Below are positions 1-37,007 of a DNA stretch of 42,546 bases, piece after piece. The DNA comes from Candidatus Iainarchaeum sp. (GTDB lineage Archaea > Iainarchaeota > Iainarchaeia > Iainarchaeales > JAZDDZ01), in contig JAZDDZ010000044.1 of NCBI GenBank assembly GCA_043809245.1, positions 1 to 42,546 of the forward strand, given 5' to 3'. Position 1 is the first letter of the stretch. Each line of letters opens with the position of its first letter. The notes beneath the pieces were generated by a model, which had not been told where the DNA came from, made no database searches, and was given only the letters and a program-made list of their open reading frames with translations. The position numbers and the translations under genes are program-made.

Positions 1-1
1 C

Positions 2-14635: not shown

Positions 14636-14641
14636 AAAAAA

Positions 14642-16822: not shown

Positions 16823-16863
16823 AAAATGGATATGTTCACTTTAGATTAAAAAAAGAATTGAAA

Positions 16864-17472
16864 CTACTTGAATATTCTTATACTAAAACCTTTACGCTTA
16901 TATTTGATTCCCATTTCGTTTAGTACTCCATAAACTTTAGAATAAGGGACTTTAGAGAATATTACAAATGCCTCGCCGCCGGATTCTAGGGTGGTATAAA
17001 TGTTTGCACAAGATGCCGCAAACTTTTCAGCATAATACGCCCCGCTAAATGTGCTAATAATCAGGTGGAATTTGTTTTTGCCAAAATGCTTTGCCAGCGT
17101 GTAAATCGGGGTTTTGTCATGGTATTCCCCTGCAAAATCTGTGAATGGCCTTTCCAAAAGGTCAGAGCGAACAATTGATACGCCTTTCTGGCTGAGTTCA
17201 TGTGCTAACGAGCTTTCCCCCGCACCCTCGTCAAGAACCCTGATTGTTTTTCCAGGGAACCTTTTTTTAAGCCTGTTGATGACATCCTGAAATTTTACGA
17301 GGTGTTCTTCTTCAACTTGGTCTAATGTTCTATAATTACATCCTACTTTTTTTCTTTGTTCTGCAAGACTTTTAAGGCCTTCTTGTATATATTTAATCCT
17401 GGCTTTTTTGAATCCGGAAATTCGCTTTTGCCTCTGCCTTATCTGAAACCTTTTTCTTTTTGGAGTGGGCAT
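16864..17472 (-). CDS. Putative class-I SAM-dependent methyltransferase with a strongly basic N-terminal tail
   Basis: Motif-I-like VLDEGAGESSL and an acidic residue after a beta-strand (VRSDL). N-terminus MPTPKRKRFQIRQRQKRISGFKKARIKY. Confidence 0.4.
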   Translation of the reverse strand: MPTPKRKRFQIRQRQKRISGFKKARIKYIQEGLKSLAEQRKKVGCNYRTLDQVEEEHLVKFQDVINRLKKRFPGKTIRVLDEGAGESSLAHELSQKGVSIVRSDLLERPFTDFAGEYHDKTPIYTLAKHFGKNKFHLIISTFSGAYYAEKFAASCANIYTTLESGGEAFVIFSKVPYSKVYGVLNEMGIKYKRKGFSIRIFK

Positions 17473-17508
17473 AAGAACACAAAAAAATTAAATAAAATAA
17501 TTTAGCGA

Positions 17509-18204
17509 TTATTTTTCCTTCGCCCATTTGAGGATTTCGTCAAAGCTTTTCAATTGTTCGTCCAGGCCCTTTATTTTTTTGTCCAGGCCCCCGATTTCTT
17601 TTTGCGAGACATCAACCCTGAATTCCTTTAATTCATCCGCGTAAGCCCCGACTCTCTTGTCTTTTTTGTAAACAATGGAGTGCTGCACTGTTTCAGTCAA
17701 CTGCTTTCGGTATTCAATGTCATTAACGAACATCCTAATCATTGGCTTCCAGCGCTTGTCTGAAACCAGGTGCGCCGGCAATTTGACTGACGCGGAATCA
17801 GAGCGGTAATCCCTGTCGGAAACAATTTTTGCCATGTGCTTCCAGTAAAGCGGGTCAGAGAGCTTCAAAACATTGTGCTTTATGTGGTAGGCTTTTGCGT
17901 CAAGGTTTTTCATTGACCACTTGCTTTTTTTTCCGGAAAACTGCTGGCGCAATGCATTCAATTCATCAATCTGGCTTTTCACCCTTAAAGGCGAAGGATA
18001 GACTAGCTTTGGCCAGCCGCTATCGGGTTTTGCGATTGAAATCACGCCGCCTTTCGCGAAATAATTCTTCAACGCCTCTGTGCGCGCTGAATCCGTTTTA
18101 AGGATTGACGTGTCCTTTAATGCGGCTTCAAATCGGTCAAAAGAAGAAATAATCCTCGACATAATATGAAGATAAACGCTCAAACGGTTATTAAACTTTT
18201 TCAT
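17509..18204 (-). CDS. Hypothetical protein
   Basis: 231-aa ORF with no recognisable motifs. Confidence 0.45.
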   Translation of the reverse strand: MKKFNNRLSVYLHIMSRIISSFDRFEAALKDTSILKTDSARTEALKNYFAKGGVISIAKPDSGWPKLVYPSPLRVKSQIDELNALRQQFSGKKSKWSMKNLDAKAYHIKHNVLKLSDPLYWKHMAKIVSDRDYRSDSASVKLPAHLVSDKRWKPMIRMFVNDIEYRKQLTETVQHSIVYKKDKRVGAYADELKEFRVDVSQKEIGGLDKKIKGLDEQLKSFDEILKWAKEK

Positions 18205-18220
18205 TAAATGAAGTTATTTT

Positions 18221-18700
18221 ATGCATAAAAGGCAAAGCGACGGGAAAAAAACTGCTCAAATCATTCGCTTCCCCGCGCAAAAAACAGCAAAAGCGGCAAG
18301 AATAGCAGTTGAAAAGCAGATTAGGCCGTTTGGTGAAACAATCCAGCACATGCAAAGAAAGCTGCCTGCCAAAACCAAAGAGATAGAAGCCGAAGAGGTC
18401 AGCGGCTTAAATGAACAAATGCAAAAAAATACTAAACAATTAATAAAGAAAATTTGGGAGTTTCAGATTCTGCAAATGCACGGAGCCGCAATTCAGAAGG
18501 CATTGGGGCTTTTCAGGGAAAGCCGCATCTCTGTGCCGAAACTCAAGGCACAACTTGATGCAATAAAAAAACGTGAAAAAAGATTGGAAAACGCAATTGG
18601 GTTATTAGAAGATAGAACAGTTAAAGAAATGAGTGATGCCCAATACACCATATTCACAAAATATATAAAAATTTGGGGCGGAGTAGTGCTGAAAAAATGA
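18221..18700 (+). CDS. Hypothetical basic/coiled-coil protein
   Basis: 159-aa ORF. Its stop overlaps the ATG of the HD-domain gene (ATGA). Confidence 0.4.
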   Translation: MHKRQSDGKKTAQIIRFPAQKTAKAARIAVEKQIRPFGETIQHMQRKLPAKTKEIEAEEVSGLNEQMQKNTKQLIKKIWEFQILQMHGAAIQKALGLFRESRISVPKLKAQLDAIKKREKRLENAIGLLEDRTVKEMSDAQYTIFTKYIKIWGGVVLKK

Positions 18701-19260
18701 AAAACAAAACCGCGAATTTTTTCTTCGAAGCCGGCGCATTGAAGCGCGTGAAGCGTTCTGGCTGGTGGTTAGCTGGAGTGAAAGAGCCTGAAAGCGTTGC
18801 CGAGCATTCATTCCGCGCTGCGTTGATTGCTTGGGCGCTGGGAAGGCAGGCTAATTGCAATGCGGAGAAGGCAGTGATGATGCTTTTGGTGCATGATTTG
18901 CCTGAAGCGCGGTTAACGGATTTGCACAAGGTAGCGCAAAGGCTATTGGACCACGGGAAAGCGGAGGGAAAAGCCGTTGAAGCGCAGGCAAAAGAATGGG
19001 GAGAAATCGGCGGGGAGTATGGAAAGCTTATGCATGAATTCGTTCAAGGGAAGACGAGAGAAGCGGTTATTGCAAAGGACGCTGATTTGCTTGAATGCGC
19101 ATTTCAGGCGAAAGAATACAAGGAGATTGGGTACACGGAGGCGGATGACTGGCTGCAGAGGATTGGCGGAAAACTGAAAACAAAAGAGGCGAAAAAGGTT
19201 TTCTCTGAATTGAAGAAAACGAAAAGCAGCGCGTGGTGGAAGAACCTCAAGAAAGAGTGA
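18697..19260 (+). CDS. HD-domain phosphohydrolase (YfbR-like 5'-deoxynucleotidase family)
   Basis: ..KRVKRSGWWLAGVKEPESVAEHSFRAA..LVHDLPEARLTD.. matches the HD motif arrangement of YfbR-like proteins. ATG at 18697 is preferred over the upstream TTG. Confidence 0.75.
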   Translation: MKNKTANFFFEAGALKRVKRSGWWLAGVKEPESVAEHSFRAALIAWALGRQANCNAEKAVMMLLVHDLPEARLTDLHKVAQRLLDHGKAEGKAVEAQAKEWGEIGGEYGKLMHEFVQGKTREAVIAKDADLLECAFQAKEYKEIGYTEADDWLQRIGGKLKTKEAKKVFSELKKTKSSAWWKNLKKE

Positions 19261-19311
19261 AAAAGGTTTAAATTGGTGACGGGCGACAATCTTTTGGAAG
19301 GTGATGCAAAA

Positions 19312-19662
19312 ATGTTTCCGGGAATGGGAAGAATGAATCCAAAGCAAATGCAGGGGTTAATGAAGCAGTTTGGCATCAAAAGCGAGGAACTGCAGGCGAA
19401 AAGCGTTGAATTAAAACTGGCTGACGGGAAAGTATTGGTGATTGAAGAGCCGAATGTATCCGTGATGCACGTGCAGGGGCAGAAAGTTTATTCGGTGACG
19501 GGTGGAAAGGAAAGGGAAGGCGCAAGCGCTGGCGAAGAAGTGCCTGAAGAAGACGTGAAAATGGTTGCAGAGCAGTCAGGCGCAAGCAAGGAAAATGCAA
19601 GAAAGGCGCTGAAGGAAACAAAAGGCGACCTCGCGGAAGCCATTGAAAAGCTGAAAAAATAA
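19312..19662 (+). CDS. nac: Nascent polypeptide-associated complex protein (archaeal NAC alpha, with UBA-like C-terminus)
   Basis: MFPGMGRMNPKQMQGLMKQFGIKSEEL.. NAC domain and a C-terminal UBA-like ..SKENARKALKETKGDLAEAIEKL. Confidence 0.85.
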   Translation: MFPGMGRMNPKQMQGLMKQFGIKSEELQAKSVELKLADGKVLVIEEPNVSVMHVQGQKVYSVTGGKEREGASAGEEVPEEDVKMVAEQSGASKENARKALKETKGDLAEAIEKLKK

Positions 19663-19665
19663 CGA

Positions 19666-20448
19666 ATGAAGTTTATGCCGAAAGGGCAAAGCTCAATGGA
19701 GTATCTCCTAATTCTGGGTGGCGCAGTGGCAGTCGCATCCATTGTATTAATCGCAATTATTTCGCTTGCAGGCGATGCAGGACAGGCAACCGGAGAGCAG
19801 GCATCGGTTTACGGGCAGATACTGGCAGGGGCAATGCCTAAAACAGAACAGCCTGTAAAGGCATACCTTAAATTAGATGAAGGCATTGGCATAACAGCAG
19901 CGGATTCAAGCGGCAATGAAAACAACGGGGCAATAACAAGTTCAGGCCAATCCGTTTGGATTAATGGCAGCGGAGAGTGCTTTGCGGGAAGCTGTTATTC
20001 CTTCCAATGCAACAAGGGAAACGTAAAGATAAATGATGCGGAATCCCTTCATTTCACTGACAGCCTGAAAATAACCGCTTGGATTGAGCCAACTGCTTTC
20101 GGTGACACAATTGTTTCAAAAAAGGATTCGTTTAGCCTCGAGTTCAACAACAAGGGAAAAGTCTATTTCAGCGTTTACACAGAAAATGGGCTTTACCGCG
20201 TGTACACAAACCAAACTTTGTCACTGAACACGCCATACCTAATAACCGCAAGCTTTTCTTCAAAGGAAGCGAAGTCAAAAATTGTCGTGAACGAAACAGA
20301 GTACGCGGTTAAGGAAAACCGCTCCCTGCAGCCAGATGAAAAAATCGCGGTGAACACAAACTCGGTTTTCATTGGAAAAAACGAGGGAAGCGCTGTTTCA
20401 AGAAAATACTTCTGCGGAAAAATAGACGAAGTGAAAATAGGGAATTAA
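19666..20448 (+). CDS. Type-IV-pilin-like (class III signal peptide) protein with a LamG/concanavalin-like jelly-roll domain
   Basis: N-terminus MKFMPKGQSSMEYLLILGGAVAVASIVL has the KG|Q prepilin-peptidase-type site followed by a hydrophobic helix. The remainder resembles a LamG-like domain (..ITAWIEP..TIVSK..). Confidence 0.55.
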   Translation: MKFMPKGQSSMEYLLILGGAVAVASIVLIAIISLAGDAGQATGEQASVYGQILAGAMPKTEQPVKAYLKLDEGIGITAADSSGNENNGAITSSGQSVWINGSGECFAGSCYSFQCNKGNVKINDAESLHFTDSLKITAWIEPTAFGDTIVSKKDSFSLEFNNKGKVYFSVYTENGLYRVYTNQTLSLNTPYLITASFSSKEAKSKIVVNETEYAVKENRSLQPDEKIAVNTNSVFIGKNEGSAVSRKYFCGKIDEVKIGN

Positions 20449-20461
20449 GCGAATCGGCTGA

Positions 20462-21835
20462 TTATTGTTCGCTGTTTTCCATTGCCTGGATTGAAATCGC
20501 TTTTCCGCGGAAAGAGAAAAAGAAAACCTGCAAATTGACCAAATCGCCTTCCTTATGCGTTGGGTTGACTGCTGCATTGAAGCCGCTTGCGCCATCAATT
20601 TCGAATGACTCGTTAGAGTCAGGCACTGAAAGCAAGGAAGCGCTTATGAAAGCGGGCTGGGTTGCGATTGCCTCAATTCCCTGCGAAAAAAGAAGCGCGT
20701 TAACGTCATCCCAGGCCAGTGAATTAAGCGCTGGGTCAATTGAGAGCGCGGCTGAAAGCGAAGACTTTGGCTCTACGAGCTCTGCAGAGGAAAAGCCTGA
20801 AGCGGTTGCCGCAGCGGAGATTTTTTGCTTAAGTGCTGTGAGGTCAGCGGTTTCGCTGAATGAAACCTGCGCTGAATTGCTGTCAGGCAAAAAAGAAATT
20901 GCGGTGACGCCTTCAATGGATGAAATTGATTGGTTGAGGTCGCCTTGTTTTTGCGTGAAATCCTGGTTGAAGTTAAGCTTTAAGCGCGCAAGTGGCTTTG
21001 AAATGTTCAGGTCAACTGACTGCACGCCATTTAACGCGCTGATTTCGCCTTTGAGCGCTTGTTCCTCAGGAGTTTTGGAGTAATCCATTCTGCCTGTCAC
21101 TTCAAGCCTTGGCTCAAGGGAAGAGATTGTGAATTCGCCGGAGAAAAGCACTGGCTGTTGTGCGCCTGAAACGTTTTCGGATTCAAAGGCAGCAATCTGG
21201 CCCTGCTGTTCGCCTATGAGCTCCATTTCCAATTCCACTTTGATGTTGTCTCCGGACATTGTGTCAATGGAAATGAATGCCTGGGTCAAAGGGTTTTCAA
21301 AAGTGTAACTGCGGGAAAGGTTAAGGTCTAAATTTGTTATTTCCACTTCTTTTGGCAGTGAAACAAGGCCCAGGCCATAGCCTTCAATGCCGTCAAGGAA
21401 AGTGGTTTTTTCTTTTATTGCATCAATCACGCCCTTTGAAGTGAACGAGGAATCAAATGTGAGGTTTGCAACGTAAATAAGGCTGCCAGCCGGAGCAAGC
21501 GACGTGTCCTGGTTCATTCTGTAAGAGGAATTAATCGAGCGGATCATTCTTTTTCCGTTTGACTCAATTCTTGAAATCTCCGAATTGATGTTTGAGATAA
21601 CTGCTTCCTTTGTCTGGCCTGTCATTAAAAGCGAGGAAAAAACCTGCACCACGCTTGCGTCTAAGTTTGAGGCAGTGTATTTAAGCGAGGTTGGGTTTTC
21701 GGGAGGCAAGGGGGGAAGCTCCGGGTTTTTCTGCGCTTCATTGCCTGCGAGGACAACCACAAAAGCGGCGCTTGAAAGGGCTATTATTATTATGATGAAA
21801 AGGCTCATCACCTGGTTTTTTTTGAAACTTGCCAT
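20462..21835 (-). CDS. Ser/Leu-rich secreted or membrane-anchored protein of unknown function
   Basis: Likely start MASFKKNQVMSLFIIIIIALSSAAFVVVLAG (signal anchor). The six-frame ORF extends upstream to 21985 without an obvious start context. Confidence 0.5.
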   Translation of the reverse strand: MASFKKNQVMSLFIIIIIALSSAAFVVVLAGNEAQKNPELPPLPPENPTSLKYTASNLDASVVQVFSSLLMTGQTKEAVISNINSEISRIESNGKRMIRSINSSYRMNQDTSLAPAGSLIYVANLTFDSSFTSKGVIDAIKEKTTFLDGIEGYGLGLVSLPKEVEITNLDLNLSRSYTFENPLTQAFISIDTMSGDNIKVELEMELIGEQQGQIAAFESENVSGAQQPVLFSGEFTISSLEPRLEVTGRMDYSKTPEEQALKGEISALNGVQSVDLNISKPLARLKLNFNQDFTQKQGDLNQSISSIEGVTAISFLPDSNSAQVSFSETADLTALKQKISAAATASGFSSAELVEPKSSLSAALSIDPALNSLAWDDVNALLFSQGIEAIATQPAFISASLLSVPDSNESFEIDGASGFNAAVNPTHKEGDLVNLQVFFFSFRGKAISIQAMENSEQ

Positions 21836-21923
21836 AAATGTTCCCTTTAAATAATTTACTTTAAAGAAGAATACTATACGAACTTTTTTAATTATAGGCG
21901 AATTTTGAGTTAATTTCCTAAAG

Positions 21924-22667
21924 GTGTTTTTTTTGGAGAAAGGAAGCATAATAAGGCTCAGTTTGACTGGAAGAGACCTTGTCACTGGCAGGGTTTTCGA
22001 GACAACCGATGAAAAAACAGCAAAAGACGCGGGAATTTACCGCGAGAACGCTTCATTCCAGCCTATAACCGCGGTTGTGGGAAAAGGAGAACTGATTGTA
22101 GGGGTTGATGAAGCGCTTGAACAGATGAGTGAAGGCGAGGAAAAGACTGTAAGAATTCCAGCGGAAAAGGCTTTCGGTGAAAGAAAAAAGGAAATGATTG
22201 TTGTCGCGCCATTGGAGCAGTTCAGGAAAAGAAAAATACAGCCTTTTCCGGGATTGGTTGTTGAGATAAACGGCAATTATGGAAGGGTGCAGAGCGTGAG
22301 CGGCGGAAGGGTCAGGGTTGACTTCAACAGCGAGCTCGCTGGAAAAGAGGTTGAATTCAGGTTAAAGGTTGAAAATGAGATAAAGGGAACCGCGGAGAAA
22401 GCTGAAGCTCTTGCGGAAAAATTCTTCCCGTTAAAGGAAAAAAAGGCGGAAGTGAAACTCAATGGAAAAGAGCTTGAAGTGCTTCTCCCCAAAGGGCTGC
22501 CGAAAGAATTTGACGTAATAAAAAAGGTTTTCGAAAAATTCGTGCTTGAAAACGTGAAGGAAATAGAGAAAATCGGCTTCATTGAAGGAAAAGGAAACAC
22601 AAAGATTGATGAAAAATCCATAAAGGAGGGGGGTCAGGAAGACCCTGAAACTGGGGGGGAACAGTAG
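21924..22667 (+). CDS. FKBP-type peptidyl-prolyl cis-trans isomerase (long archaeal type); C-terminus rewritten by insertion of the miniature element
   Basis: FKBP core ..LTGRDLVTGRVFETT..VVGKGELIVGVDEALEQMSEGEEKTVRIPAEKAFGER... GTG/TTG start. The present stop at 22665-22667 lies inside the inserted element. Confidence 0.8.
   Translation: MFFLEKGSIIRLSLTGRDLVTGRVFETTDEKTAKDAGIYRENASFQPITAVVGKGELIVGVDEALEQMSEGEEKTVRIPAEKAFGERKKEMIVVAPLEQFRKRKIQPFPGLVVEINGNYGRVQSVSGGRVRVDFNSELAGKEVEFRLKVENEIKGTAEKAEALAEKFFPLKEKKAEVKLNGKELEVLLPKGLPKEFDVIKKVFEKFVLENVKEIEKIGFIEGKGNTKIDEKSIKEGGQEDPETGGEQ
22553..22587. repeat. Target-site duplication, left copy (35 bp, cgtgaaggaaatagagaaaatcggcttcattgaag)
   Basis: Exact 35/35 match to 22685-22719. 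Confidence 0.85.
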
Positions 22668-22684
22668 GTGCCCCCGCGGTTTGG
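22588..22684. mobile_element. Miniature GC-rich insertion element, copy B (97 bp), inside the 3' end of the FKBP gene
   Basis: Flanked by a perfect 35-bp direct duplication. Shares conserved blocks and the terminal ccgcggtttgg with 4114-4200. Carries the in-frame stop that now ends the FKBP ORF. Confidence 0.55.
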
Positions 22685-22719
22685 CGTGAAGGAAATAGAG
22701 AAAATCGGCTTCATTGAAG
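22685..22719. repeat. Target-site duplication, right copy (35 bp)
   Basis: Exact repeat of 22553-22587. Confidence 0.85.
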
Positions 22720-22778
22720 TGAAAGAAGAAGAGAAAGGGAAAGAGAAGGCGGAAAGCAAGGCGAAGAACACGCCTTAA
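22686..22778 (+). pseudogene. Displaced ancestral 3' end of the FKBP gene (VKEIEKIGFIEVKEEEKGKEKAESKAKNTP*)
   Basis: In frame with the FKBP ORF (offset 762 nt) and open to TAA at 22776-22778. It becomes contiguous with the gene if the 132-bp insertion is removed. Confidence 0.5.
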
Positions 22779-22811
22779 AGAATGGTTTTTAAAGCTTTAG
22801 CTTGCCAATAG

Positions 22812-22819
22812 GTATATAG
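22812..22819 (+). promoter_or_regulatory. TATA-box-like element (gtatatag) ~30 bp upstream of the psmB TTG start
   Basis: AT-rich octamer at the canonical distance. Leaderless transcript likely. Confidence 0.35.
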
Positions 22820-22846
22820 GCTTTAATTGCTATTTTTGGTGATTTT

Positions 22847-23509
22847 TTGGCTGACAAGAATCTTAAGACAGGAACAACGACAGTCGGGGTTATAGCAAAG
22901 GACACGGTTGTTTTGGCTGCTGATTTGCGCGCTTCCCTTGGGCACATTGCCTACGAGGAGGAAAGCAAGAAGCTGTACAAGATAACAAACAGGATTGCGA
23001 TAACAAACGCTGGAAGCGTCGGGGATTCCTTGACAATCATCAGGTTTTTGAAGAGCCACGCACAATTGTACGAAATGGAGCGCGAGGGCGCAATGAGCGT
23101 CAGGGCAGCGGCAAACCTTTTGTCAAATGTCTTGAACGCAAACAGGTTTTACCCTTACATTGCGCAGTTTGTGCTTGGCGGAGTGAACAACGAGCCGGAA
23201 CTCTTCGAGGTAACCCCTGATGGGGGAATACTTGAAAGACGCGAGTATGCTATCAGCGGTTCGGGAACAGAGTTCGCAATGACGACTCTTGACCAGAATT
23301 ACAAAAAGGACTTAAACGAAGAGGACGCAATAAGGCTTGCTGTGAAGGCAATTGAAGCCGGAAAAAGAAGGGACATTTTTTCCGGGGGAAAAGGCGTTTC
23401 AGTGATGGTCATTTCAAGGAACGGGGTAAAAGAGCTTAGCCCGCAAAAGGTCCAGGAAATGCTTGACAAAAAGCCCGCAGCGGAAAAGGCACAGAAAAGG
23501 GGAAGCTGA
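22847..23509 (+). CDS. psmB: Proteasome beta subunit (short propeptide, Thr1 active site)
   Basis: MADKNLKTG|TTTVGV.. with the Ntn-hydrolase Thr. Conserved ..GSGTEFAMTTLD... TTG start. Confidence 0.9.
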   Translation: MADKNLKTGTTTVGVIAKDTVVLAADLRASLGHIAYEEESKKLYKITNRIAITNAGSVGDSLTIIRFLKSHAQLYEMEREGAMSVRAAANLLSNVLNANRFYPYIAQFVLGGVNNEPELFEVTPDGGILERREYAISGSGTEFAMTTLDQNYKKDLNEEDAIRLAVKAIEAGKRRDIFSGGKGVSVMVISRNGVKELSPQKVQEMLDKKPAAEKAQKRGS

Positions 23510-23598
23510 AAAGCCCCTAAATTGAATTGATTTTGAATTAACTTTCTGCATTTCACTTGATTTTTTTGCCTTAAACAACAACCAATAATTGCTAAGAC

Positions 23599-23607
23599 AT
23601 TTAAAAT
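23599..23607 (+). promoter_or_regulatory. TATA-box-like element (atttaaaat) upstream of the aCPSF1 gene
   Basis: Lies ~40 bp upstream of ATG 23646. Confidence 0.3.
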
Positions 23608-23645
23608 TTGATTAACATAAAGGGCAATTTTTGCGAGGTATTACA

Positions 23646-26600
23646 ATGGATTTACTTAAAGAAATAAAGGAAATAGTCAGCACGTCGCTGCCTGAAGAGG
23701 CGCGCGTTACATCAGTGGACCTTGAAGGGCCGGAGGTTGCGGTTTACACCAAGAACCCAAAGGCTTTCTTTGAGAACGAAAACTTTGTGGCAAAGCTTGC
23801 ATTTGACTTGAAGAAAAGGGTTAACATCAGAACAGACAAAAGCCTGCTTATCCCAGAGGAAGAGGCAAAGAAAAAAATAGAGGAAATTCTGCCAGCTGAC
23901 GCCGGAGTAAAGGACATCCAATTCAATCCCGCTTTCTCGGAAGTCGTAATCGAGGCAATAAAGCCAGGCCTGGTTATAGGCAAGGGCGGGGAAACAAGCA
24001 AAAAAATCATACTTGAGACTGGATGGACGCCGAATATTTTAAGGGCCCCCACGACCCCCTCTGAAATACTGAAGGGAATAAGGCATCACTTGCACAAGTA
24101 CAGCGCGGAGAGGAAAAAAATACTGCAGGAAACCGCGAAAAAAATTTACGAGGAAAGGGACGGCAAAAGCAACGGCTGGATTAGGATGACTGCATTGGGC
24201 GGATACCGCGAAGTTGGAAGAAGCTGCATGCTCGTGGAAACAAGGGACACAAAAATCATAATGGATTGTGGAATAAACGTTGCAAACAGCGATGAGCCAT
24301 ATCCCTATCTTGACGCAATAAGGTTTCCAATAAACGAATTGGATGCAATAATCATCAGCCACGCGCACTTGGACCACTCTGGTTTCACCCCGTACCTTTT
24401 CAAGCTTGGCTATCGTGGGCCAGTATATTGCACTGCCCCAACCCGAGACCTGATGGCTTTGCTGCAGTTCGACTACATTGATGTTTTGCTTAAAGAGGGA
24501 AAAGAGCCGCCTTACAGTGAAAGGGATGTAAAGGAAATGGTAAAGTACTGCATTACAAGGGAATACCGGGAAGTCACGGATATTGCGCCGGACATGAGGT
24601 TAACGTTCCATAACGCTGCGCACATTCTTGGAAGCGCTTCAGTTCACTTGCACATGGGTGAGGGGGCGCACAACCTTGTTTATTCTCTGGACCACAAAGT
24701 GCCTGTAACAATTATAGATAAACACAACAATGTGCATACTGAAGAAATCGGGAAATTGGTTGACAGGGAGATTAAAAAATTTGGAGTTAGTGACGGCTAT
24801 GTTGATGAAGCGGCTAACCTTTCCGGCTGGAAAACCATAGCCTTCAACCCGTTAACGTTAAAGGCGGAAAAAGTCGAGATAACTTCTTTTGTTAGGCATC
24901 CAATCAACGAGGACTTGTTTGAGATTAAAACCAAAAGCGGCAGGAAAACCATTGTTACAGGTTCGCACAGCGTTTTTACTGTTAAAGACGGAATAGTTAC
25001 AGATATTATGGCAAAGGATTTAACACTTGGCGATTACATTGTTGGCTTAAGAAGGCTTAACATAAAAGCCGAAAAACCGATAATTTCGTTGCCTCAAAAT
25101 AAGTTTGCGGTAAAATTAAATGGCGAAAAATTGGAAACCCGCTTGAATGAGACCTATGAAAAGATAAAGAAACGTTTTCCAGATATGGAAAATAAGCTAA
25201 TGTGCTGGGCAAGAGAGCATCTGGAAAACGGCTTGTATGAAAATGCAATTGCCAAAAAGTACAATGCAAGCAGGAAAACTGTAAGAAAATACTTTAAAGA
25301 ATTAGGAATACAAAAAAATCTCCGCAGAGGCACGCTTTTTGCTTCCCAAATCGAAATAAAAAAGGATTTTGCGCGTTTTTTGGGATACTTTGTGTCTGAA
25401 GGTAGCACGAATAAAAACACAGTAATAATTACGCAGTACGATAAGAAAATGCTTGAGGATTCTATCCGGATTATTGAATGTAATTTTGGAATTAAGGGCA
25501 AGATAGTTAGAAATGAAGCACAGTTTTATTCCAAACAGCTGGCATTACTGCTTAAGGAAGTGCTGGCTTGCGGGAATAATGCGCATGCCAAAAGAGCGCC
25601 AAGGCAAATAATGCTTGCTGAAGAAGATGTTATCGCAGAATTTTTGAAGGGGTGCTTTTTAGGCGATGGGTGTTTCATAAAAAAGCCTAAAGGCATGTAT
25701 GTGAACTGTACCTCTAAGAGCAAATTTTTGATTCAGGAAATTGGATTTTTGCTATTGCGAATTGGAATAGCGGCAACATTCACCTATAACAAATCAATTA
25801 GAATGCATAACCTCAACATTTATGGGCAAGAACAGTTAGACCGATTTTTCAAGTTTATTAGTATTGAAAAATGGGAAAATAAATACCGGGCGCATAAGTA
25901 CGCGTATAAAAAAAGTTGTTTTGCAGACAGAATTCCAATATCGGCATTAAGCCAGCAGACACAAGAGACGTTTAATTTAAGTTCGTACAGAGCAGCTAAA
26001 TCATGCAGTACAGCAATGCTTCTACGTTCAAGCCAAAATACTTTGGAGAAAAAACTTGTTGAATCGGACTTACTGTTTGATGAAATAAACAGCATTAGAA
26101 AGGTACGTTCCAGCAGCAAATATGTGTATGATTTTAGTGTAACAGGCTATGAGAATTTTTTAGGCGGTTCAGGGCACCTATTCATGCATAACACCGGTGA
26201 CTTCAAGTACGGTTTCACAAGGCTGTTCAACAACATTGACATGCAGTACCCGAGGCTTGAAACGCTTATAATTGAAAGCACTTACGGTTCAAGGGACGAC
26301 ATAATGCCGCAAAGGCAGGAAGCAGAGGAAATCCTTTTGGAAGTGATAAGGGAGGCAACCGAAAGGGGAGGCAATGTCCTTATACCTGTGTTTGCGGTTG
26401 GAAGGGCACAGGAAATAATGCTTGTAATAGAGAACTTTTACCGCAGGGGATTGATTGACGCAAAAGTCTTTGTTGACGGAATGACAAGGGAGGCAAGCGC
26501 AATTCACACCGCTTACCCTGAGTACCTAAGGGAAATAGTGCAGAGAAGGGTGCTGACAAATGATTCTCCTTTCACTTCAGATGCATTCCAGGTCATAGAC

Positions 26601-27044
26601 CCCCAAAACCGCGACGCAGTATTGAATGAAAAGAAGGCAATAATCATCAGTTCCTCGGGAATGCTTACAGGCGGCCCGGCAGTTTATTACTTTAACAAGA
26701 TGGCAGAAGACCCCTTGAATACGCTTATTTTTGTGGGCTATCAGGGAGAAGGCTCGCAGGGAAGAAAAATTCAGTCAGGGCTGCGTTCAATGCCAGTGAA
26801 TGTCAACGGAAAGACAAGGGAGTTACACATAAAGATGCAGGTGGAGACAGTTGAAGGTTTCAGTGGGCATTCAGATTTTATGCAGCTTGCAAATTATGTA
26901 AGGAACCTAAAGCCCAAGCCAAAGAAAGTCATAGTAGACCACGGCGACCAGTCAAAGACAGTTGAATTCGCGAAATTCCTTGCAAACAAGTTCAAATTGA
27001 ACTGCACTGCGCCAAGAGACCTGGATTCGCTAAGGCTGAAATAA
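23646..27044 (+). CDS. aCPSF1-type beta-CASP/metallo-beta-lactamase RNase with N-terminal KH domains, intein-containing (extein ~630 aa, intein 503 aa)
   Basis: KH motif VIGKGGE. MBL motifs HAHLDHSG and AAHILGSA, then ..HNLVY|intein|TGDFKYG.. and the beta-CASP C-terminus (..GFSGHSD..VDHGD). Confidence 0.85.
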   Translation: MDLLKEIKEIVSTSLPEEARVTSVDLEGPEVAVYTKNPKAFFENENFVAKLAFDLKKRVNIRTDKSLLIPEEEAKKKIEEILPADAGVKDIQFNPAFSEVVIEAIKPGLVIGKGGETSKKIILETGWTPNILRAPTTPSEILKGIRHHLHKYSAERKKILQETAKKIYEERDGKSNGWIRMTALGGYREVGRSCMLVETRDTKIIMDCGINVANSDEPYPYLDAIRFPINELDAIIISHAHLDHSGFTPYLFKLGYRGPVYCTAPTRDLMALLQFDYIDVLLKEGKEPPYSERDVKEMVKYCITREYREVTDIAPDMRLTFHNAAHILGSASVHLHMGEGAHNLVYSLDHKVPVTIIDKHNNVHTEEIGKLVDREIKKFGVSDGYVDEAANLSGWKTIAFNPLTLKAEKVEITSFVRHPINEDLFEIKTKSGRKTIVTGSHSVFTVKDGIVTDIMAKDLTLGDYIVGLRRLNIKAEKPIISLPQNKFAVKLNGEKLETRLNETYEKIKKRFPDMENKLMCWAREHLENGLYENAIAKKYNASRKTVRKYFKELGIQKNLRRGTLFASQIEIKKDFARFLGYFVSEGSTNKNTVIITQYDKKMLEDSIRIIECNFGIKGKIVRNEAQFYSKQLALLLKEVLACGNNAHAKRAPRQIMLAEEDVIAEFLKGCFLGDGCFIKKPKGMYVNCTSKSKFLIQEIGFLLLRIGIAATFTYNKSIRMHNLNIYGQEQLDRFFKFISIEKWENKYRAHKYAYKKSCFADRIPISALSQQTQETFNLSSYRAAKSCSTAMLLRSSQNTLEKKLVESDLLFDEINSIRKVRSSSKYVYDFSVTGYENFLGGSGHLFMHNTGDFKYGFTRLFNNIDMQYPRLETLIIESTYGSRDDIMPQRQEAEEILLEVIREATERGGNVLIPVFAVGRAQEIMLVIENFYRRGLIDAKVFVDGMTREASAIHTAYPEYLREIVQRRVLTNDSPFTSDAFQVIDPQNRDAVLNEKKAIIISSSGMLTGGPAVYYFNKMAEDPLNTLIFVGYQGEGSQGRKIQSGLRSMPVNVNGKTRELHIKMQVETVEGFSGHSDFMQLANYVRNLKPKPKKVIVDHGDQSKTVEFAKFLANKFKLNCTAPRDLDSLRLK
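24684..26192 (+). mobile_element. Intein with LAGLIDADG homing-endonuclease domain inside aCPSF1 (Ser1 ... His-Asn, +1 Thr)
   Basis: Starts SLDHKVPVTIID and ends ..GHLFMHN followed by TGDFK. LAGLIDADG motifs FLGYFVSEGST and FLKGCFLGDGC. 1509 nt, in frame. Inserted immediately before the MBL motif-4 Asp. Confidence 0.8.
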
Positions 27045-27548
27045 ACCTGTTTAAAAGGCAAGAAACGCCAAATATACATAAGGCTGTTTTTTGCCTGAAA
27101 AAAAAGGAAACAATCTCTTGTTCAAATACAAAATATACATAAGAAAAAAGCCTTTTTAGGGCTCTATTTTGCCTTTTCAGCAATTAACAATCCACATATA
27201 ATAAACAGAGGCGTTAACTGCCTCCGTTTTACCGAAAAGTATATTAATGGGTTAGGTTATTATCTTAGTGCTCTAAAGGGGTGCTTTAATGAAAACCACT
27301 GGAAAAGGCAAAAACCTTCTTTCATCTTCATCCAATGAAAATGAAAGCCTTTGGATTGAATTAAGCAACTGCTTGGAGCAAGGTGGGAAGAAGTTAACTG
27401 ATTCCGCTATTGCTTTAAATAAAAGGTTTGAATGTAGGCACTAGAAATCGGTTTTCACCCCTTAATTTTTCCCACCTCTCATTCTTTTCTTTTCCCTAGC
27501 TTTACCCTCTGCTTTTGGCTTTTATTCCTTATGCAGCACAATCTTTGG

Positions 27549-28085
27549 ATGCGCATACTGATAACCGGCACCCCTGGAGTGGGAAAAACTTCAGCGGCAA
27601 AGCTGTTGGGGAAGAGGTTAGGCCTGCCTGTAATCAATGAAAGGGAATTTGCGCTGCAAAAGGGGAACAAAAAGCGAAAATTATACGAATGGGATGAAAA
27701 AAACAAGGAAATCGTGCTACATGAAAAGGAACTGCAAAAGGAACTGAACAAAGAGCTTCTACATAAGAAGAATTGTGTTTTAGAAGGCCATGTTTTATGC
27801 GAATTAAAGCTGAAAGTCAACTGGGTTGTGCTGTTAAGGCTGCATCCATCAGTGCTTGAATTCCGCCTGGAGCAAAGGGGTTATGCCGCGGAAAAGTTAA
27901 TGGACAATGTTTTCTGCGAGGGAATTGACTACTGCAGGAAGCACGTGCGCAGAAACTATGCCAAAAGCAAAATAATCGAAATAGACTGCCTTGGGAAAAC
28001 AATTAAAGAAGTAACTGATGAAATAATATTGGCTTTGTATAAAAAAAGCCGCGCGCGAAAAAAGCGCAAAGGGGTGAAAAAATGA
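27549..28085 (+). CDS. Fap7/AK6-type putative adenylate kinase (ribosome-biogenesis NTPase)
   Basis: MRILITGTPGVGKTS (P-loop), ..VLEGHVLCEL.., ..LRLHPSVLEFRLEQRGY.. are typical of archaeal Fap7 homologs. Confidence 0.7.
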   Translation: MRILITGTPGVGKTSAAKLLGKRLGLPVINEREFALQKGNKKRKLYEWDEKNKEIVLHEKELQKELNKELLHKKNCVLEGHVLCELKLKVNWVVLLRLHPSVLEFRLEQRGYAAEKLMDNVFCEGIDYCRKHVRRNYAKSKIIEIDCLGKTIKEVTDEIILALYKKSRARKKRKGVKK

Positions 28086-29389
28086 GGAGCGCTTTGCCTT
28101 TACTATTTGTGTTAGCGTTGCTTTTTGTGTCATTTGCGGGCTTTGCTTCGGCCAAGCCATTGCAGGAAAAAACCCTAAACGAATTGTCCGCGCAGGAACT
28201 CTTAGCGGATGGCGTGGAACAGGAAAAATGCTCAACAATTTACTTCCAAGCGGATACTGGCGGAGATGAACGGGTTTTCACTGCCTTTTCAATGCACGCG
28301 GAATTTTTTCCGCAAATTTCAAGGCACGCGAAAGTTTCCTTCACGCTTAATGACGAGGTAGCGCCTTTCAAAGAGATTGACGGAAGGGACATGCAGAACA
28401 ACTGGTTCAGGTTGGTCATGCCAAGGGAAGCCGTAAAGGAAGGCACTAATTCCCTTGAAGTATGCTTTAAAACAGGCGGGGAAACAACGCAGATGATCCT
28501 GCGCAAGGATTCAAAAATCGGCGCATATTATTTGCCTGACTTTTCAGTTGAAGGAGCTTTCACCAAAACAACTGAAAGCGATTCGCCCTTGATTGGAAAG
28601 GAATTCGAGGTAGCTGTTTCATTGAAAAACTTCGGAAGCGAGGACGCGCTTGTCGAAGTGGCATACCTTGACGATTCCTTTGAGGAATACATGACGGAAA
28701 TCCAGCTCATAAAGGTTTTGAGCGGGAACTCGAAAATCAATGCACTGGTTCCGGCTTACAATTTTGAAACAAAAACACCGGGTGAAGAAGAATTGAAGTT
28801 CCAGGTGCAGGGAAAACGCGCAGTGCAGATGACGCTGCTGCCTGCAGTGCTCAGCTACAACACCTCAGCTTATTTTGGCGATGACATAAATTTCACTGAG
28901 AGGATTAAATCGACGCGCCCCACAATTAAGGTGCGCAACCCGGAAGTGAAAATCAGGCCCTATATTTTAAGCGAAGGCGAAATAAAAAAAATAGGGGAAA
29001 CAAACGAAGTCCAGATTGCATTAAAGAACGAGGGCGTTGATGAGGCGACAAACATTGCCGTCTCGGTTTCAGCACAGCCGGGGCTGGACGTTGGGGGGCA
29101 GCAGGAACAGCTTGTCTCTGTTATTGCCCCAAAGGAAACAAAGTACTTAGAATTCAGCGCTTCAGCGCAGCAGCCTGGAAGCTATAATGTGGGATGCGAA
29201 ATCGTTAGCCAAGATTACGAGCTTGTGAAAATCACATGCACTCCTGCAAGGCTTACATTTGAGGGCACGGGTTTAAGCCCGACGCTGATTGCTGCAGCAG
29301 TGTTTATCATCATTGGCTTGGCCGTTTACCTCTTCATTATTTACAGCGGGGAAAAAACGCCTTCAAGCCCGCTGGAAGGGAAAAAATAA
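28082..29389 (+). CDS. Secreted protein with N-terminal signal peptide and C-terminal transmembrane anchor, function unknown
   Basis: MRSALPLLFVLALLFVSFAGFASA signal. C-terminal LIAAAVFIIIGLAVYLFIIY TM then a basic tail. Start overlaps the Fap7 stop (ATGA). Confidence 0.6.
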   Translation: MRSALPLLFVLALLFVSFAGFASAKPLQEKTLNELSAQELLADGVEQEKCSTIYFQADTGGDERVFTAFSMHAEFFPQISRHAKVSFTLNDEVAPFKEIDGRDMQNNWFRLVMPREAVKEGTNSLEVCFKTGGETTQMILRKDSKIGAYYLPDFSVEGAFTKTTESDSPLIGKEFEVAVSLKNFGSEDALVEVAYLDDSFEEYMTEIQLIKVLSGNSKINALVPAYNFETKTPGEEELKFQVQGKRAVQMTLLPAVLSYNTSAYFGDDINFTERIKSTRPTIKVRNPEVKIRPYILSEGEIKKIGETNEVQIALKNEGVDEATNIAVSVSAQPGLDVGGQQEQLVSVIAPKETKYLEFSASAQQPGSYNVGCEIVSQDYELVKITCTPARLTFEGTGLSPTLIAAAVFIIIGLAVYLFIIYSGEKTPSSPLEGKK

Positions 29390-29587
29390 AAGTGGAAAAA
29401 AATGCCGATAATTCCGCTAAGATTCAGGGGATACATTGAAAGGATTCCCTGGCCCGGGAAAGTCAGGCAAACTCAAAAATCGCAGAAACCCCCGGAAAGG
29501 CCTCCGAAAAAGCAGCATGAAAAAATGCCTGATGAAAAAACAAGAAAAACAGGAACAACAATTGACCTAAAAGGCTGAAATCTCTAA

Positions 29588-32365
29588 TCAACTGCTGAAC
29601 TGCAGCACTCCTGTGGAATTTGTGCTAACGGTCTTATTCTGCGCGGTTCCTGTTGTCTGGTTTTTTATTTCAATGTCGTATGCCTTGCTTGCCTCCAACC
29701 CGTTAACTGTGTTGTTCACTGTTGTCGTTGCGCTGTACTGGTAAATCAGATTCTGCTGCAAGCATGTGTTGATTGTTCCCCCTGCAATTGAAATAGTGCA
29801 GGGTGTTGAAATGTTGACTGTGCACTGCAGCGCGGGAGTGCAGGAATTTGTTTGCCAGGAGCCATTGCAGCAGTAACCCGAGTCAACTATTCCTGTGCAT
29901 GCTGATGGATTTGGTGCAGAGCATTCTGGCGAAGCTGAACTGTTTCCGCAGTAGCATGTGCCGACGTTTTCTGGTGTGATTTCCACTCCGTTTTGGCATG
30001 GTTCAGGACCAATGTATGTGGTGCTTACAATGAAATCGTCCCACCATATTTGTTTTTCTTCTGGTGGTGACCATGGAACGTCCAAAGAGCCTCCGCCGCC
30101 GTCGTAGATTATGTTGTCGCTCAGCGTGACATTGTTGAAATGCCCTTCCGCAGACCTGAGGCTTATGCCGCTAACATCAAAGATTTTTTTTCCATTAATC
30201 CATGAAGCCGCTCTCCCGTCATTCAGCCCTACTGTGTTGAGTTTTAAGTAATCCTCTATTAGTATCCACACACCTCCATTGTAATCATACCATGTTGCGC
30301 CTTTTTCGTTGTCAGGGTAAATTGATTGATCATTGTAGGGAATTGTCCTGTAAACCATTCGCCCCCAACTCCATCCCGGAATATTGTAAGCTCGCCCTCC
30401 GGATGGCAAATCCGCGCAAGCCTGTGAATCTGTGAGAGATTTAATGCGCATTAATTTGTGTATGTTTTGGTTTGGCCACCAAGCCCAATCCACGGCGTAT
30501 TTTACATAATAACGGAAATAGAGTTCGTCGTGGTCCTTTTCAGGAAGCCATGCAGTCATTCCTCCAGATGGTTCCTGCCCTCCTTCTATATTTACCTGCA
30601 TGCACCCGCTGTCAAGCCTGCCGCTATGGTTGATTATTTGTTCAGTAGGGAGTCCATAATTACTCCAAGGCCTGAACTGGCACCATTCGCTTCCTTCAGG
30701 CCTGCATGATGTAATGCTGTCACCTAACTCGCATAAAACATCAGGTTTGGGATTAATATTCTTCCAATTCTCAAAATGGTCCTCGAAAATCACTCCCGCC
30801 CCTGGCAAAGAGCAGCTTTGCGTTTCCACTGGCTTGTTGTTTGTTGTTCCGCATGCGGCTAAATCAGTGCAGGTTCTTGTTTGTGTTCCTCCAGAGCATG
30901 CACTCCATGCCGTGCAGCTCCATGTTTCTGTGCAGCTTGTCGTTGAACTGTTGTAGTCGCAGTGTTTTGTTGCTCCGTAGATTGGGTCTCCGAAAACTGA
31001 GTTGCTGCATGAAACCGAGTTAGTGTAAGTGCCATAGGCGTATGTGTTGTTTGCTCCGTATCTGACCTGCCTTGTTCCGGAAAAACTGCATGTTTGCCCT
31101 TCGTTTGCACAAAAAGTCCAGCCACTGGTTGCAGTATTGTTCACTGTCACGTTAACTGTTGTGCTTGTTGCAGTGTTTCCGCTTGCATCCCTTGCAGTTG
31201 CAGTCAATGCATGTGAAGCATTTGAAGCCGTAGTCGTATTCCATGAAAAAGAGTAAGGCGCGCTTGTGTCCTCGCTTCCCAGATTGCTTCCGTCTAATTT
31301 GAATTGCACTCCAGCCACTCCAACATTATCCGAAGCGTTCGCTGTAACGCTAATTGTGCCTGAAACTGTTTGCTCTGAAGTGGGAGAGGTAATGGAAACT
31401 GTGGGTAGAGTAGTATCACTTGTCCCGCTTGGGCTCCAAACACCATTATTGCAGTAACCCGAGTCAACTATTCCCGTGCATGCTGTTGTGTTTGTTGCAT
31501 TGCAGTCTGGGTTCGGCGCAGTGGTTCCGCAGTAGCAGGTTCCGACATTTTCAGGGGTGATTTCAATACCGTTCGGGCAGGGCTCCGGGCCTAAATATGT
31601 GGTGCTGACTTTTACGTCGTCGTGCCTGACCCACCATTCGTTTGGCGATATTCCAACCAATGCCTGGTTGTTGGTGTTGTCGCCTATATTGAAATGGTCA
31701 ATTAATAATTGTTGCTGGCCAACATAACTGATATTGTTGTATGTTTGGCGTAGCTTTCCATTGAACCAAACCTGCAGTATTCCGTTGTTCTGCCCTATCG
31801 TATTATTTTTAAAGCGAAATTCAATTTCATACCATTTTCCCGCGCCGAATTCTGAAAAGTAAACAGGATTGGCGGGGTCACTCAAAATTGTTCCTGCGCC
31901 TGCACCCGCGCCAGTGTATAGCCGGGGGGGCATCCATGCCCAGTCAGGGATAGTTACATAACTAGTTCCAGGGTCATTCTGGAAATTCCAGTAAAATCTT
32001 GCCATTTTGTAAAAAGTAAGGTTTTGCCAAACCCACCTATTGTCAAACTTCACATACCACCTAAAGTAAAGCTCGGAATTGCCGGGCAAATTCTTATTCA
32101 AATGCCCTGACGGTTCCCCCCGATCCTCGTAATTCACCTGAAAACAACCCGAATTCATTCTACCGCAGGAACTCCCAAAAATCTGCGCATCAGGCAAACC
32201 ATAAGCGCTCCAATCAGGAGACGTTCCCCAATTCGGAGCTGCTGTACCCATCTGAGAATCCCAGTAAGGCGAACCATCAAAATCATCCTGGAAAATAATT
32301 GCGGCCGAAGCTGTCTGCATTAACGCTATTGCAAGAATTAAAGCCAAAACGATTTTTCCATTCAT
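29588..32365 (-). CDS. Paralog of the 7750-10557 secreted Cys-rich multi-module surface protein (inverted orientation)
   Basis: The first ~520 aa are ~90% identical to the 7750-10557 product (exact nucleotide runs up to 29 bp). The second jelly-roll module is divergent. The C-terminal Cys-rich tail and the ..LQFSS* ending are conserved. Confidence 0.7.
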   Translation of the reverse strand: MNGKIVLALILAIALMQTASAAIIFQDDFDGSPYWDSQMGTAAPNWGTSPDWSAYGLPDAQIFGSSCGRMNSGCFQVNYEDRGEPSGHLNKNLPGNSELYFRWYVKFDNRWVWQNLTFYKMARFYWNFQNDPGTSYVTIPDWAWMPPRLYTGAGAGAGTILSDPANPVYFSEFGAGKWYEIEFRFKNNTIGQNNGILQVWFNGKLRQTYNNISYVGQQQLLIDHFNIGDNTNNQALVGISPNEWWVRHDDVKVSTTYLGPEPCPNGIEITPENVGTCYCGTTAPNPDCNATNTTACTGIVDSGYCNNGVWSPSGTSDTTLPTVSITSPTSEQTVSGTISVTANASDNVGVAGVQFKLDGSNLGSEDTSAPYSFSWNTTTASNASHALTATARDASGNTATSTTVNVTVNNTATSGWTFCANEGQTCSFSGTRQVRYGANNTYAYGTYTNSVSCSNSVFGDPIYGATKHCDYNSSTTSCTETWSCTAWSACSGGTQTRTCTDLAACGTTNNKPVETQSCSLPGAGVIFEDHFENWKNINPKPDVLCELGDSITSCRPEGSEWCQFRPWSNYGLPTEQIINHSGRLDSGCMQVNIEGGQEPSGGMTAWLPEKDHDELYFRYYVKYAVDWAWWPNQNIHKLMRIKSLTDSQACADLPSGGRAYNIPGWSWGRMVYRTIPYNDQSIYPDNEKGATWYDYNGGVWILIEDYLKLNTVGLNDGRAASWINGKKIFDVSGISLRSAEGHFNNVTLSDNIIYDGGGGSLDVPWSPPEEKQIWWDDFIVSTTYIGPEPCQNGVEITPENVGTCYCGNSSASPECSAPNPSACTGIVDSGYCCNGSWQTNSCTPALQCTVNISTPCTISIAGGTINTCLQQNLIYQYSATTTVNNTVNGLEASKAYDIEIKNQTTGTAQNKTVSTNSTGVLQFSS

Positions 32366-32387
32366 TTCGTTAAAATTGATGCGCTAA

Positions 32388-32399
32388 GTAGTATATATT
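32388..32399 (-). promoter_or_regulatory. TATA-box-like element (reverse strand aatatatactac) ~26 bp upstream of the paralog start
   Basis: Same tatact-type motif and spacing as upstream of 7750. Confidence 0.3.
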
Positions 32400-32413
32400 C
32401 GTTGTCGTGGCGT

Positions 32414-36613: not shown

Positions 36614-36647
36614 AAATTAAGGCAAAAAACAGTTTTTAATTATTTCG

Positions 36648-37007
36648 TTGATTGACGATATTATGGCGAATGAAGAAAATTTAAATTGTTATATACCTAT
36701 ATATAACTTATCTGGTGGCTTTATGGCTGAAGCTCAAATGAGAATCCTGCATTATCCTAGGCTTGACACAGTCCTTATGGTTGAGAAATTCATCAAGGAA
36801 AACAGCGGCGAATTCAAAAAACGCAAGCTCTGGGAGAGCCTCCCGAAAAAAACAATGTACCAGACTTACTGCGTGATAATAAACTATCTCTTTGAATCTG
36901 GAAAAATCGGAATGGACGGGGAAGGCCATATTGCATGGATTTGGAATCCTGAACTTGTGAAAAAATACGTAGACAGAAAGGATTTGGGCTGGAGGCCGGA
37001 AAAATGA
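36648..37007 (+). CDS. Hypothetical small protein (possible winged-helix; candidate antitoxin partner)
   Basis: 119-aa ORF. Alternative starts MANEEN (36663) or MAEAQ. Overlaps the downstream RelE-like ORF by 4 nt. Confidence 0.35.
   Translation: MIDDIMANEENLNCYIPIYNLSGGFMAEAQMRILHYPRLDTVLMVEKFIKENSGEFKKRKLWESLPKKTMYQTYCVIINYLFESGKIGMDGEGHIAWIWNPELVKKYVDRKDLGWRPEK

Follow-up and report, generated by a model that had tools for sequence, protein, structure and literature searches.

In the 42,546-nt contig JAZDDZ010000044.1 of Candidatus Iainarchaeum sp., a Diapherotrites-like DPANN archaeon (assembly GCA_043809245.1; the whole of this stretch is hereafter called the window), the gene for aCPSF1/FttA, the universal archaeal termination factor, contains a long in-frame insert, and the question raised by this locus is what kind of element it is and what its presence may mean for the host. 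Sequence profiles, motifs, an AlphaFold2 model and structure matches indicate with high confidence that the insert is a canonical class-1 LAGLIDADG-type homing intein of 503 residues (Ser1 to His502-Asn503; nt 24684..26192, + strand), which interrupts, between Tyr and Thr, the strand-loop HNLVY/TGD bearing the zinc-bridging motif-4 Asp of the metallo-beta-lactamase (MBL) core (a slash marks the splice junction here and below).

Host and insert are encoded by a single uninterrupted open reading frame (ORF) of 1137 codons located at 23631..27044 on the + strand (stop 27042..27044). This ORF matches the NCBIfam equivalog TIGR03675 'beta-CASP ribonuclease aCPSF1' (E 9.5e-252; 836.8 bits versus a cut-off of 580.2) in two stretches, one on either side of the insert, and the Pfam families KH_TffA, KH_2, Lactamase_B, Beta-Casp and RMMBL are all detected in it, in agreement with the host named in a preliminary description of this DNA. 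All the parts expected of aCPSF1 were found, namely two N-terminal KH domains, MBL motifs 1-4, beta-CASP motifs A-C and a C-terminal dimerisation tail, and the rejoined sequence retains the motifs HAHLDH, TGD, ESTYG, SGHSD and DHGD. The listed start codon is TTG 23631, five codons upstream of an in-frame ATG at 23646 (MDLLKEIKE). Because homologue alignments start at ORF residue 6, which is the one encoded by this ATG, the true start is probably ATG 23646, the TTG lying five codons too early, and the precursor and mature protein would then comprise ca. 1132 and 629 residues, respectively. The N-extein (23646..24683, + strand) contains the two KH domains and the MBL domain with motifs 1-3, including the HAHLDH of motif 2 and the motif-3 His, and ends with ..GAHNLVY. 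The C-extein (26193..27041, + strand) begins with Thr+1 (26193..26195), followed by a Gly and by the motif-4 Asp (26199..26201), and contains the beta-CASP motifs A-C and the dimerisation tail.

The insert corresponds to ORF residues 352-854. It opens with SLDHKVPVTII and closes with ..GGSGHLFMHN, after which the host sequence resumes with TGDFKYGF; around it, the ORF product reads ..SVHLHMGEGAHNLVY, then 503 residues, then TGDFKYGFTRLF.. The boundaries given in the preliminary description, with a first Ser, a terminal FMHN and a Thr next to it, are exact in the translation. When the insert is removed, the resulting product (634 residues when counted from the TTG) can be aligned over its entire length with 2YCB, the aCPSF1 structure from Methanothermobacter thermautotrophicus (E 4.8e-213), and the two exteins meet with zero gap at the junction (HNLVYTGDFKY in the window, HNMVYTGDFKY in 2YCB). 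They also align with 3AF5, 2XR1 and the FttA of T. kodakarensis (9BCT), KH domains and C-terminal tail included (E 1e-191 to 5e-213 over the four structures), whereas the aCPSF1 proteins that have been solved or studied biochemically are all devoid of an intein. In 107 intein-less relatives the site is likewise continuous, as HN[LI][VI]Y-[ST]-[GAS]-D, and in 103 of them a native Ser or Thr faces position +1, the other four having Gly. The insert is exactly excisable, and its removal restores the conserved motif as had been anticipated.

A fragment alignment placed H7 and D30 of the fragment opposite H158 and D179 of CPSF-73, which we take to be MBL motifs 3 and 4 from the beta-CASP literature (Callebaut 2002, Mandel 2006). 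The insertion does lie at motif 4, as initially proposed, but not one residue before its Asp: the junction is Y/T-G-D, with Thr+1 and Gly+2 located between the intein and the Asp, which is residue +3 of the C-extein. As DNA, the rejoined, empty target site reads ATGGGTGAGGGGGCGCACAACCTTGTTTAT/ACCGGTGACTTCAAGTACGGTTTCACAAGG.

Within the insert, a Pfam Intein_splicing match (E 1.4e-22) is accompanied by matches to TIGR01445 (intein N-terminus; 31.2 bits) and TIGR01443 (intein C-terminus; 18.3 bits), for which the curated cut-offs are 24.5 and 15.6, respectively; such matches are not expected by chance. The splicing blocks are readable at both ends. The N-terminal HINT subdomain (residues 1-135, nt 24684..25088, + strand) contains block A (Ser1-Leu-Asp) and block B (TGSH, residues 92-95, nt 24957..24968), while the C-terminal HINT subdomain (residues 461-503, nt 26064..26192, + strand) contains block F (VYDFSVTGYENF, residues 481-492, nt 26124..26159, which includes VYDFSV..ENF) and block G (FMHN, residues 500-503, nt 26181..26192), with Thr+1 immediately downstream; the C-terminal splicing block that had been sought is present. 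An AlphaFold2 model of the intein, built on 12 sequences, reached a mean predicted local distance difference test (pLDDT) of 89.9 and a predicted template modelling score (pTM) of 0.83, with beta-strands above a pLDDT of 90 in the N-terminal HINT subdomain. Its best Foldseek matches among solved structures were PI-TkoII (2CW7), TliVMA (7QSS), PhoVMA (7QST) and PI-PfuI (1DQ3), and the modelled splicing domain alone superposes on the TFIIB, RadA and CDC21 mini-inteins with a root-mean-square deviation (rmsd) of 1.5-2.5 A. A HINT fold is present in the insert as modelled. In sequence and in predicted fold, every hallmark of a class-1 intein and of a LAGLIDADG homing endonuclease was found, in line with the Ser1/Thr+1 LAGLIDADG intein initially described, and both activities are predicted on these grounds.

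The LAGLIDADG homing-endonuclease domain occupies residues 221-392 (nt 25344..25859, + strand). Both of the motifs quoted in the preliminary description are there, LGYFVSEGS at residues 233-241 (nt 25380..25406) and LKGCFLGDGC at residues 321-330 (nt 25644..25673), contributing the catalytic acids E239 (VSEG) and D328 (LGDG), and Pfam LAGLIDADG_3 matches in two stretches (E 1.2e-20 to 7.5e-20). In the model this domain resembles PI-TkoII, PI-PfuI, I-DmoI and I-Tsp061I (Foldseek), and the order of the predicted secondary structures fits the pseudo-dimeric alpha-beta-beta-alpha-beta-beta-alpha LAGLIDADG fold.

Two additional modules flank the endonuclease. The first is a linker domain of four helices (residues ca. 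136-220, nt 25089..25343, + strand; modelled helices at residues 147-164, 166-182, 186-192 and 197-207) with a helix-turn-helix (HTH)-like segment, YENAIAKKY..RKTVRKYFKELGI, of which the motif IAKKY..RRVR..FK.LGI is conserved among inteins found at the same site. Matches of the linker to HTH families in Pfam and NCBIfam (HTH_7, HTH_11, GntR, IS21 HTH) were all sub-threshold (E 0.005-0.2), and when modelled in isolation (pLDDT 68.7) it retrieved HTH proteins only with Foldseek (KorA, ArdK, sigma region 4), at non-significant E values (E >= 0.3). The linker may be regarded as a putative, HTH-like extra DNA-binding module. The second is a helical accessory region (residues ca. 393-460, nt 25860..26063, + strand), delineated by the secondary structure of the model between the endonuclease and the C-terminal HINT subdomain, which is the least conserved segment of the intein (mean column conservation 0.49). 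It is placed like the accessory domain of the inteins associated with a homing endonuclease (HEN) that are described in PMC8966425, and such domains of archaeal inteins are thought to contribute DNA contacts (PMC8966425). The overall order, HINT-N, four-helix linker, LAGLIDADG, accessory region and HINT-C, is the modular archaeal-intein plan of the same study.

PI-TkoII, the Pol-2 intein of the Thermococcus kodakarensis DNA polymerase, is the best structural match (Foldseek E 1.1e-34, TM 0.71/0.66) and shares with the aCPSF1 intein a LAGLIDADG endonuclease set into a HINT domain, an accessory domain made of helices and one further domain (domain IV in PI-TkoII; PMC8966425). Its host, however, is a family-B DNA polymerase, and the two sequences are no more than 21% identical; in the aCPSF1 intein the further domain is HTH-like, lies between the N-terminal HINT subdomain and the endonuclease, and is only tentatively comparable to domain IV. 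The modular HINT, HEN and accessory-domain organization is also found in TliVMA, PhoVMA and PI-PfuI (Foldseek E 8e-29 to 5e-23), the hosts of which are the V-ATPase subunit A and ribonucleotide reductase. These three structures carry the C1A change of a natural first Cys where the aCPSF1 intein has Ser and, in the VMA inteins, HINT and HEN are connected by an unstructured loop of 28-32 residues (PMC8966425) instead of a folded four-helix segment of ca. 85 residues, as modelled here. The best profile match outside aCPSF1 is the intein of the archaeal RNA polymerase subunit A'' (PRK14898, E 7e-35; for example P0123), which was also the best non-aCPSF1 match of the word-indexed search described below; it resembles the aCPSF1 intein by Ser1 and Thr+1 (..GTQM/SLPYEE...LTHN/TMRTF) and by having a host in the transcription machinery, but host and insertion site are different and the 35% identity extends over only 22% of the query. 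Finally, the TFIIB mini-inteins (Mvu and Mja; 5O9I/5O9J) also have a transcription-factor host and superpose on the splicing domain with an rmsd of 1.5-1.6 A (34% identity over ca. 125 residues) but have no endonuclease.

When the intein was used as query in a word-indexed search of 5.8 billion proteins, six clusters were retrieved above the twilight zone, all of which are fragments or precursors of aCPSF1 with an intein at the same site (P0001/P0004, P0002, P0003, P0121 and P0122; 38-59% identity), the next matches (RpoA'', RadA, Top6 and others) being below 35% identity. The window's own protein was absent from the protein collections searched, where the closest inteins were 57-59% identical. 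When 1.84 billion representatives at 50% identity were searched exhaustively with HMMER, three full-length precursors of aCPSF1 scored E <= 1e-99 and other inteins followed only at E 1e-58 (26-31% identical), those checked at this level being located in NrdD, a VirB11-type ATPase and one unidentified protein. Genomes and metagenome contigs were scanned with patterns derived from a 5-sequence C-terminal alignment, by which intact same-site precursors were recognized in nine of 185,579 GTDB species genomes, belonging to the Aenigmatarchaeota, Nanoarchaeota/Nanoarchaeia, Woesearchaeota and one Bathyarchaeota, and on ca. 19 metagenome contigs as well; a scan of the metagenome contigs with a single protein as query gave zero matches.

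Altogether, at least 26 distinct full-length same-site inteins from DPANN and Bathyarchaeota metagenomes are available, which are 503-517 residues long and 37-58% identical (37-68% overall). Despite this spread, S1, D3, H95, E239, K303, D328, Y482, D483, F492, H502 and N503 do not vary in 26 copies, and both position 92 and position +1 are occupied by T or S only, a pattern that is expected under, and would fit, purifying selection on both splicing and endonuclease activity. Among the relatives with this intein, L038 (ENA ERZ27245859 k141_184) is the closest, being 58% identical to the window in the intein and 67% in the exteins, and has in common with it the gene order proteasome-beta to aCPSF1. 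In this relative the gene was called as two ORFs owing to a 1-nt frameshift in a CCCCCCCAAAAAAA run of the intein (ca. nt 5900..5960); the frameshift sits in a C7/A7 homopolymer and the alternate frame continues the homologous sequence, so that it is probably an assembly error, real inactivation being possible too. A split intein was considered and rejected, as the window has one continuous ORF and the two ORFs of L038 are explained by this single nucleotide. The nearest aCPSF1 relatives that lack the intein, at least one of which is labelled Candidatus Diapherotrites, are 75% identical to the window exteins over ca. 630 residues. They are thus closer than L038, and intein presence at this site is patchy even among close lineages.

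How such an element would operate can be proposed from its parts. Translation of the aCPSF1 gene would yield the precursor of ca. 1132 residues, which is presumed to be catalytically dead, almost certainly so as a nuclease, because 503 residues part MBL motif 3 from motif 4. The HINT domain would then carry out an N-O acyl shift at Ser1, trans-esterification would move the N-extein to the Thr+1 side chain, Asn503 would cyclise with the help of His502 and so free the intein, and an O-N shift would restore a peptide bond, giving the 629-residue aCPSF1 with an intact ..HNLVYTGDFKY.. The freed LAGLIDADG endonuclease, equipped with two extra helical modules of which one is HTH-like, would cut the rejoined site in an intein-less aCPSF1 allele, and the intein would be copied into this allele through recombinational repair. 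Of the archaeal genomes with an aCPSF1 gene, 95% have a single copy (PMC8653824), and the protein is described as strictly conserved throughout Archaea (PMC3553952, PMC8653824); efficient splicing is therefore presumably obligatory for the host.

Several points weigh against reading this locus as an actively homing intein in the sole aCPSF1 gene of its host. Splicing, DNA cleavage by the endonuclease and inactivity of the precursor are inferred from the anatomy just described, and the window offers a view of 42.5 kb of the genome, elsewhere in which a second, intein-free aCPSF1 copy may exist. Inteins and exteins vary closely together in pairwise identity (r = 0.92 for 91 pairs, which are not independent), the intein being the more similar of the two in only three of the 91 pairs and by 1 to 4 points; a clear signal of cross-phylum transfer was accordingly not obtained from these comparisons. 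Across 21 other same-site loci, the GC content of the intein goes with that of the host, from 25 to 56%. Together with the identity correlation, this points to long residence, or to transfer only between relatives, rather than to demonstrably ongoing homing or a recent arrival. In the window, GC falls from 46-47% in the exteins to 37.6% in the intein (0.53 and 0.39, respectively, at third codon positions). This dip was at first considered as proof of recent horizontal transfer and has been downgraded, since the intein is also a few points below the flanking extein at most of the 21 other loci and such a general offset is weak evidence for a recent event. Finally, protein and contig searches returned no intein-less allele from a near-identical organism for the motif-4 site.

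The identity correlation, the amelioration of intein GC to that of the host at the 21 loci and the missing near-identical empty allele would all be accounted for if the intein still splices but has become fixed, its endonuclease being inactive or left without empty targets, and if it is inherited vertically and kept only because an essential gene would be destroyed if the intein were deleted imprecisely. We consider this an unlikely alternative, yet the one to be taken most seriously. Among 26 copies with an overall identity of only 37-68%, the two catalytic acids of the LAGLIDADG motifs and the conserved Lys never vary, which speaks for continued selection on the endonuclease, and occurrence is very patchy (see above; the count of nine species genomes depends on the scan pattern), the closest relatives being without the intein. 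What endonuclease loss looks like can moreover be seen at another site of aCPSF1, in the decaying 344-residue intein P0104 described below, whose degenerate motifs are unlike those of the window copy. A homing intein with a presumably functional endonuclease remains our preferred reading.

In public data, aCPSF1 carries inteins at three sites besides motif 4, and the four sites (after motif 2, GPVY/T, motif 4 and motif B) all lie in the MBL/beta-CASP core. In the first case, the site after MBL motif 2 is occupied in L042 (Ga0187771_10011664; ORF 2031..6149) by a Cys1/Cys+1 intein of 443 residues (residues 260-702) with the junctions ..SHAHLDH/CLDPDSY...GIVVHN/CGFVPFLY, and the same gene has the motif-4 intein too. 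In the second case, the GPVY site is filled in P0005 and L005/L043 (GPVY[MC]/S...HN/T[AE]PTRD). The L005 contig (DATDWR010000004.1) has an ORF of 1604 codons at 5022..9833 that combines a 451-residue Ser1/Thr+1 intein (GPVYM/SVDY...CLHN/TAPTRD) with a motif-4 intein, these two being only ca. 25% identical to each other. Two inteins thus occur in one aCPSF1 gene on two contigs. The third case relates to beta-CASP motif B, with EGF/S...HN/SGHSD in P0006, P0104 and P0282. In P0282, a Micrarchaeota protein of the same 90% cluster as P0006, the intein is 472 residues long (EGF/SVPYDTE...MLHN/SGHSD), and over 628 residues the intein-less P0283 shares 90.8% identity with the exteins of P0282; this filled and empty pair is, at the level of sequence comparison, direct evidence that an intein was gained or lost at the motif-B site among close relatives. 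In the JGI protein P0104 (690 residues), the motif-B intein is reduced to 344 residues with degenerate LAGLIDADG motifs (LLGNYIAERI and FLKVFFRENG) and looks like an endonuclease in decay.

Whether aCPSF1/FttA is a recurrent intein target at no fewer than four independent catalytic-core sites, such that the active termination factor of some DPANN and Bathyarchaeota would depend on splicing and global termination would be subject to a post-translational checkpoint, is in our opinion highly doubtful as a whole. The same low degree of belief applies to the related idea that the intein is a conditional post-translational switch, in which an environmental cue tunes splicing, hence the amount of active termination factor and termination genome-wide. 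Insertion within three residues of a zinc ligand, which should render the precursor inactive, and the independent invasion of aCPSF1 at four catalytic-core sites are in its favour, and conditional splicing is documented for other inteins, as in the zinc-inhibited splicing of DnaB dealt with in PMC7360933. On the other hand, no sign of a sensor is apparent in the sequence, the customary redox or disulfide control through Cys is precluded by Ser1 and Thr+1, and most relatives manage without the intein; since selfish inteins generally insert at conserved catalytic motifs, regulation is superfluous as an explanation. That the gene with its insert is a relic without function or a product of misassembly, with a working aCPSF1 encoded elsewhere, can be evoked because only part of the genome is in view, L038 has a frameshift within the intein and GC drops at both junctions, but is very hard to reconcile with an intact ORF of 1137 codons, with junctions that are in frame and fall between the very same two residues in over 25 independent assemblies, with aCPSF1 motifs that are all preserved and a TIGR03675 score far over cut-off, with the single-copy status of the gene noted above (PMC8653824), with the homopolymer context of the L038 frameshift, typical of assembly errors, and with an intein GC that is below extein GC at nearly all loci.

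If the element is, as we favour, a selfish homing intein, its splicing and homing mechanism is textbook, with nothing mechanistically new, and the unusual aspect is the host. The preliminary description had suggested that aCPSF1 is missing from the usual lists of intein hosts, which is consistent with the top-15 archaeal hosts given by Novikova et al. (PMC4760082), as far as that ranking extends, and with our literature search. No paper describing aCPSF1 as an intein host was found by full-text search, the supplementary tables of Novikova et al. being a place where it might still be listed. According to the host overview in that survey (PMC4760082), inteins are strongly biased to replication, recombination and repair ATPases and few occur in core transcription or translation components; two surveys dedicated to aCPSF1 do not mention inteins (PMC3553952, PMC8653824). 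In databases, the automated JGI/IMG name of P0134 is 'predicted metal-dependent RNase/intein/homing endonuclease', and intein-bearing proteins are labelled plainly 'beta-CASP ribonuclease aCPSF1' by NCBI.

A standard intein beside a zinc ligand in a universal archaeal termination factor adds a new host and several alleles to the intein catalogue. The set of at least 26 natural Cys-free inteins (Ser1, Thr/Ser+1), together with a predicted new LAGLIDADG specificity, could serve protein engineering. aCPSF1 has also been proposed as a phylogenetic marker in archaeal taxonomy (PMC8653824), and inteins inflate and fragment this marker in metagenome-assembled genomes of DPANN and Bathyarchaeota, giving rise to 'partial' or split gene calls.

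The window contains a second LAGLIDADG intein, as previously noticed, in the gene for DP1, the small subunit of PolD (1222..4104, + strand). This intein is 453 residues long (2221..3579) and of the Cys1/HN/Cys+1 type; the DP2 gene located downstream (4216..7698) is intein-free. The possibility raised earlier that the DP1 and aCPSF1 inteins are related through recent intragenomic spread is rejected, BLASTP giving only 26% identity over 106 residues around LAGLIDADG motif 2 (E 0.002). Elsewhere in the window, no tRNA gene was detected by ARAGORN over 1..42546, and two ORFs on the - strand, 32414..36613 (1399 residues) and 20462..21985 (507 residues), had no Pfam match at E <= 1e-5. Finally, a pair of paralogues of ca. 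930 residues each, 74% identical, occurs at 7750..10557 (+ strand) and 29588..32365 (- strand), ca. 19 kb apart; both have a hydrophobic N-terminal segment (possibly a signal peptide), a Big_7 Ig-like domain and partial polysaccharide-lyase-14 matches.

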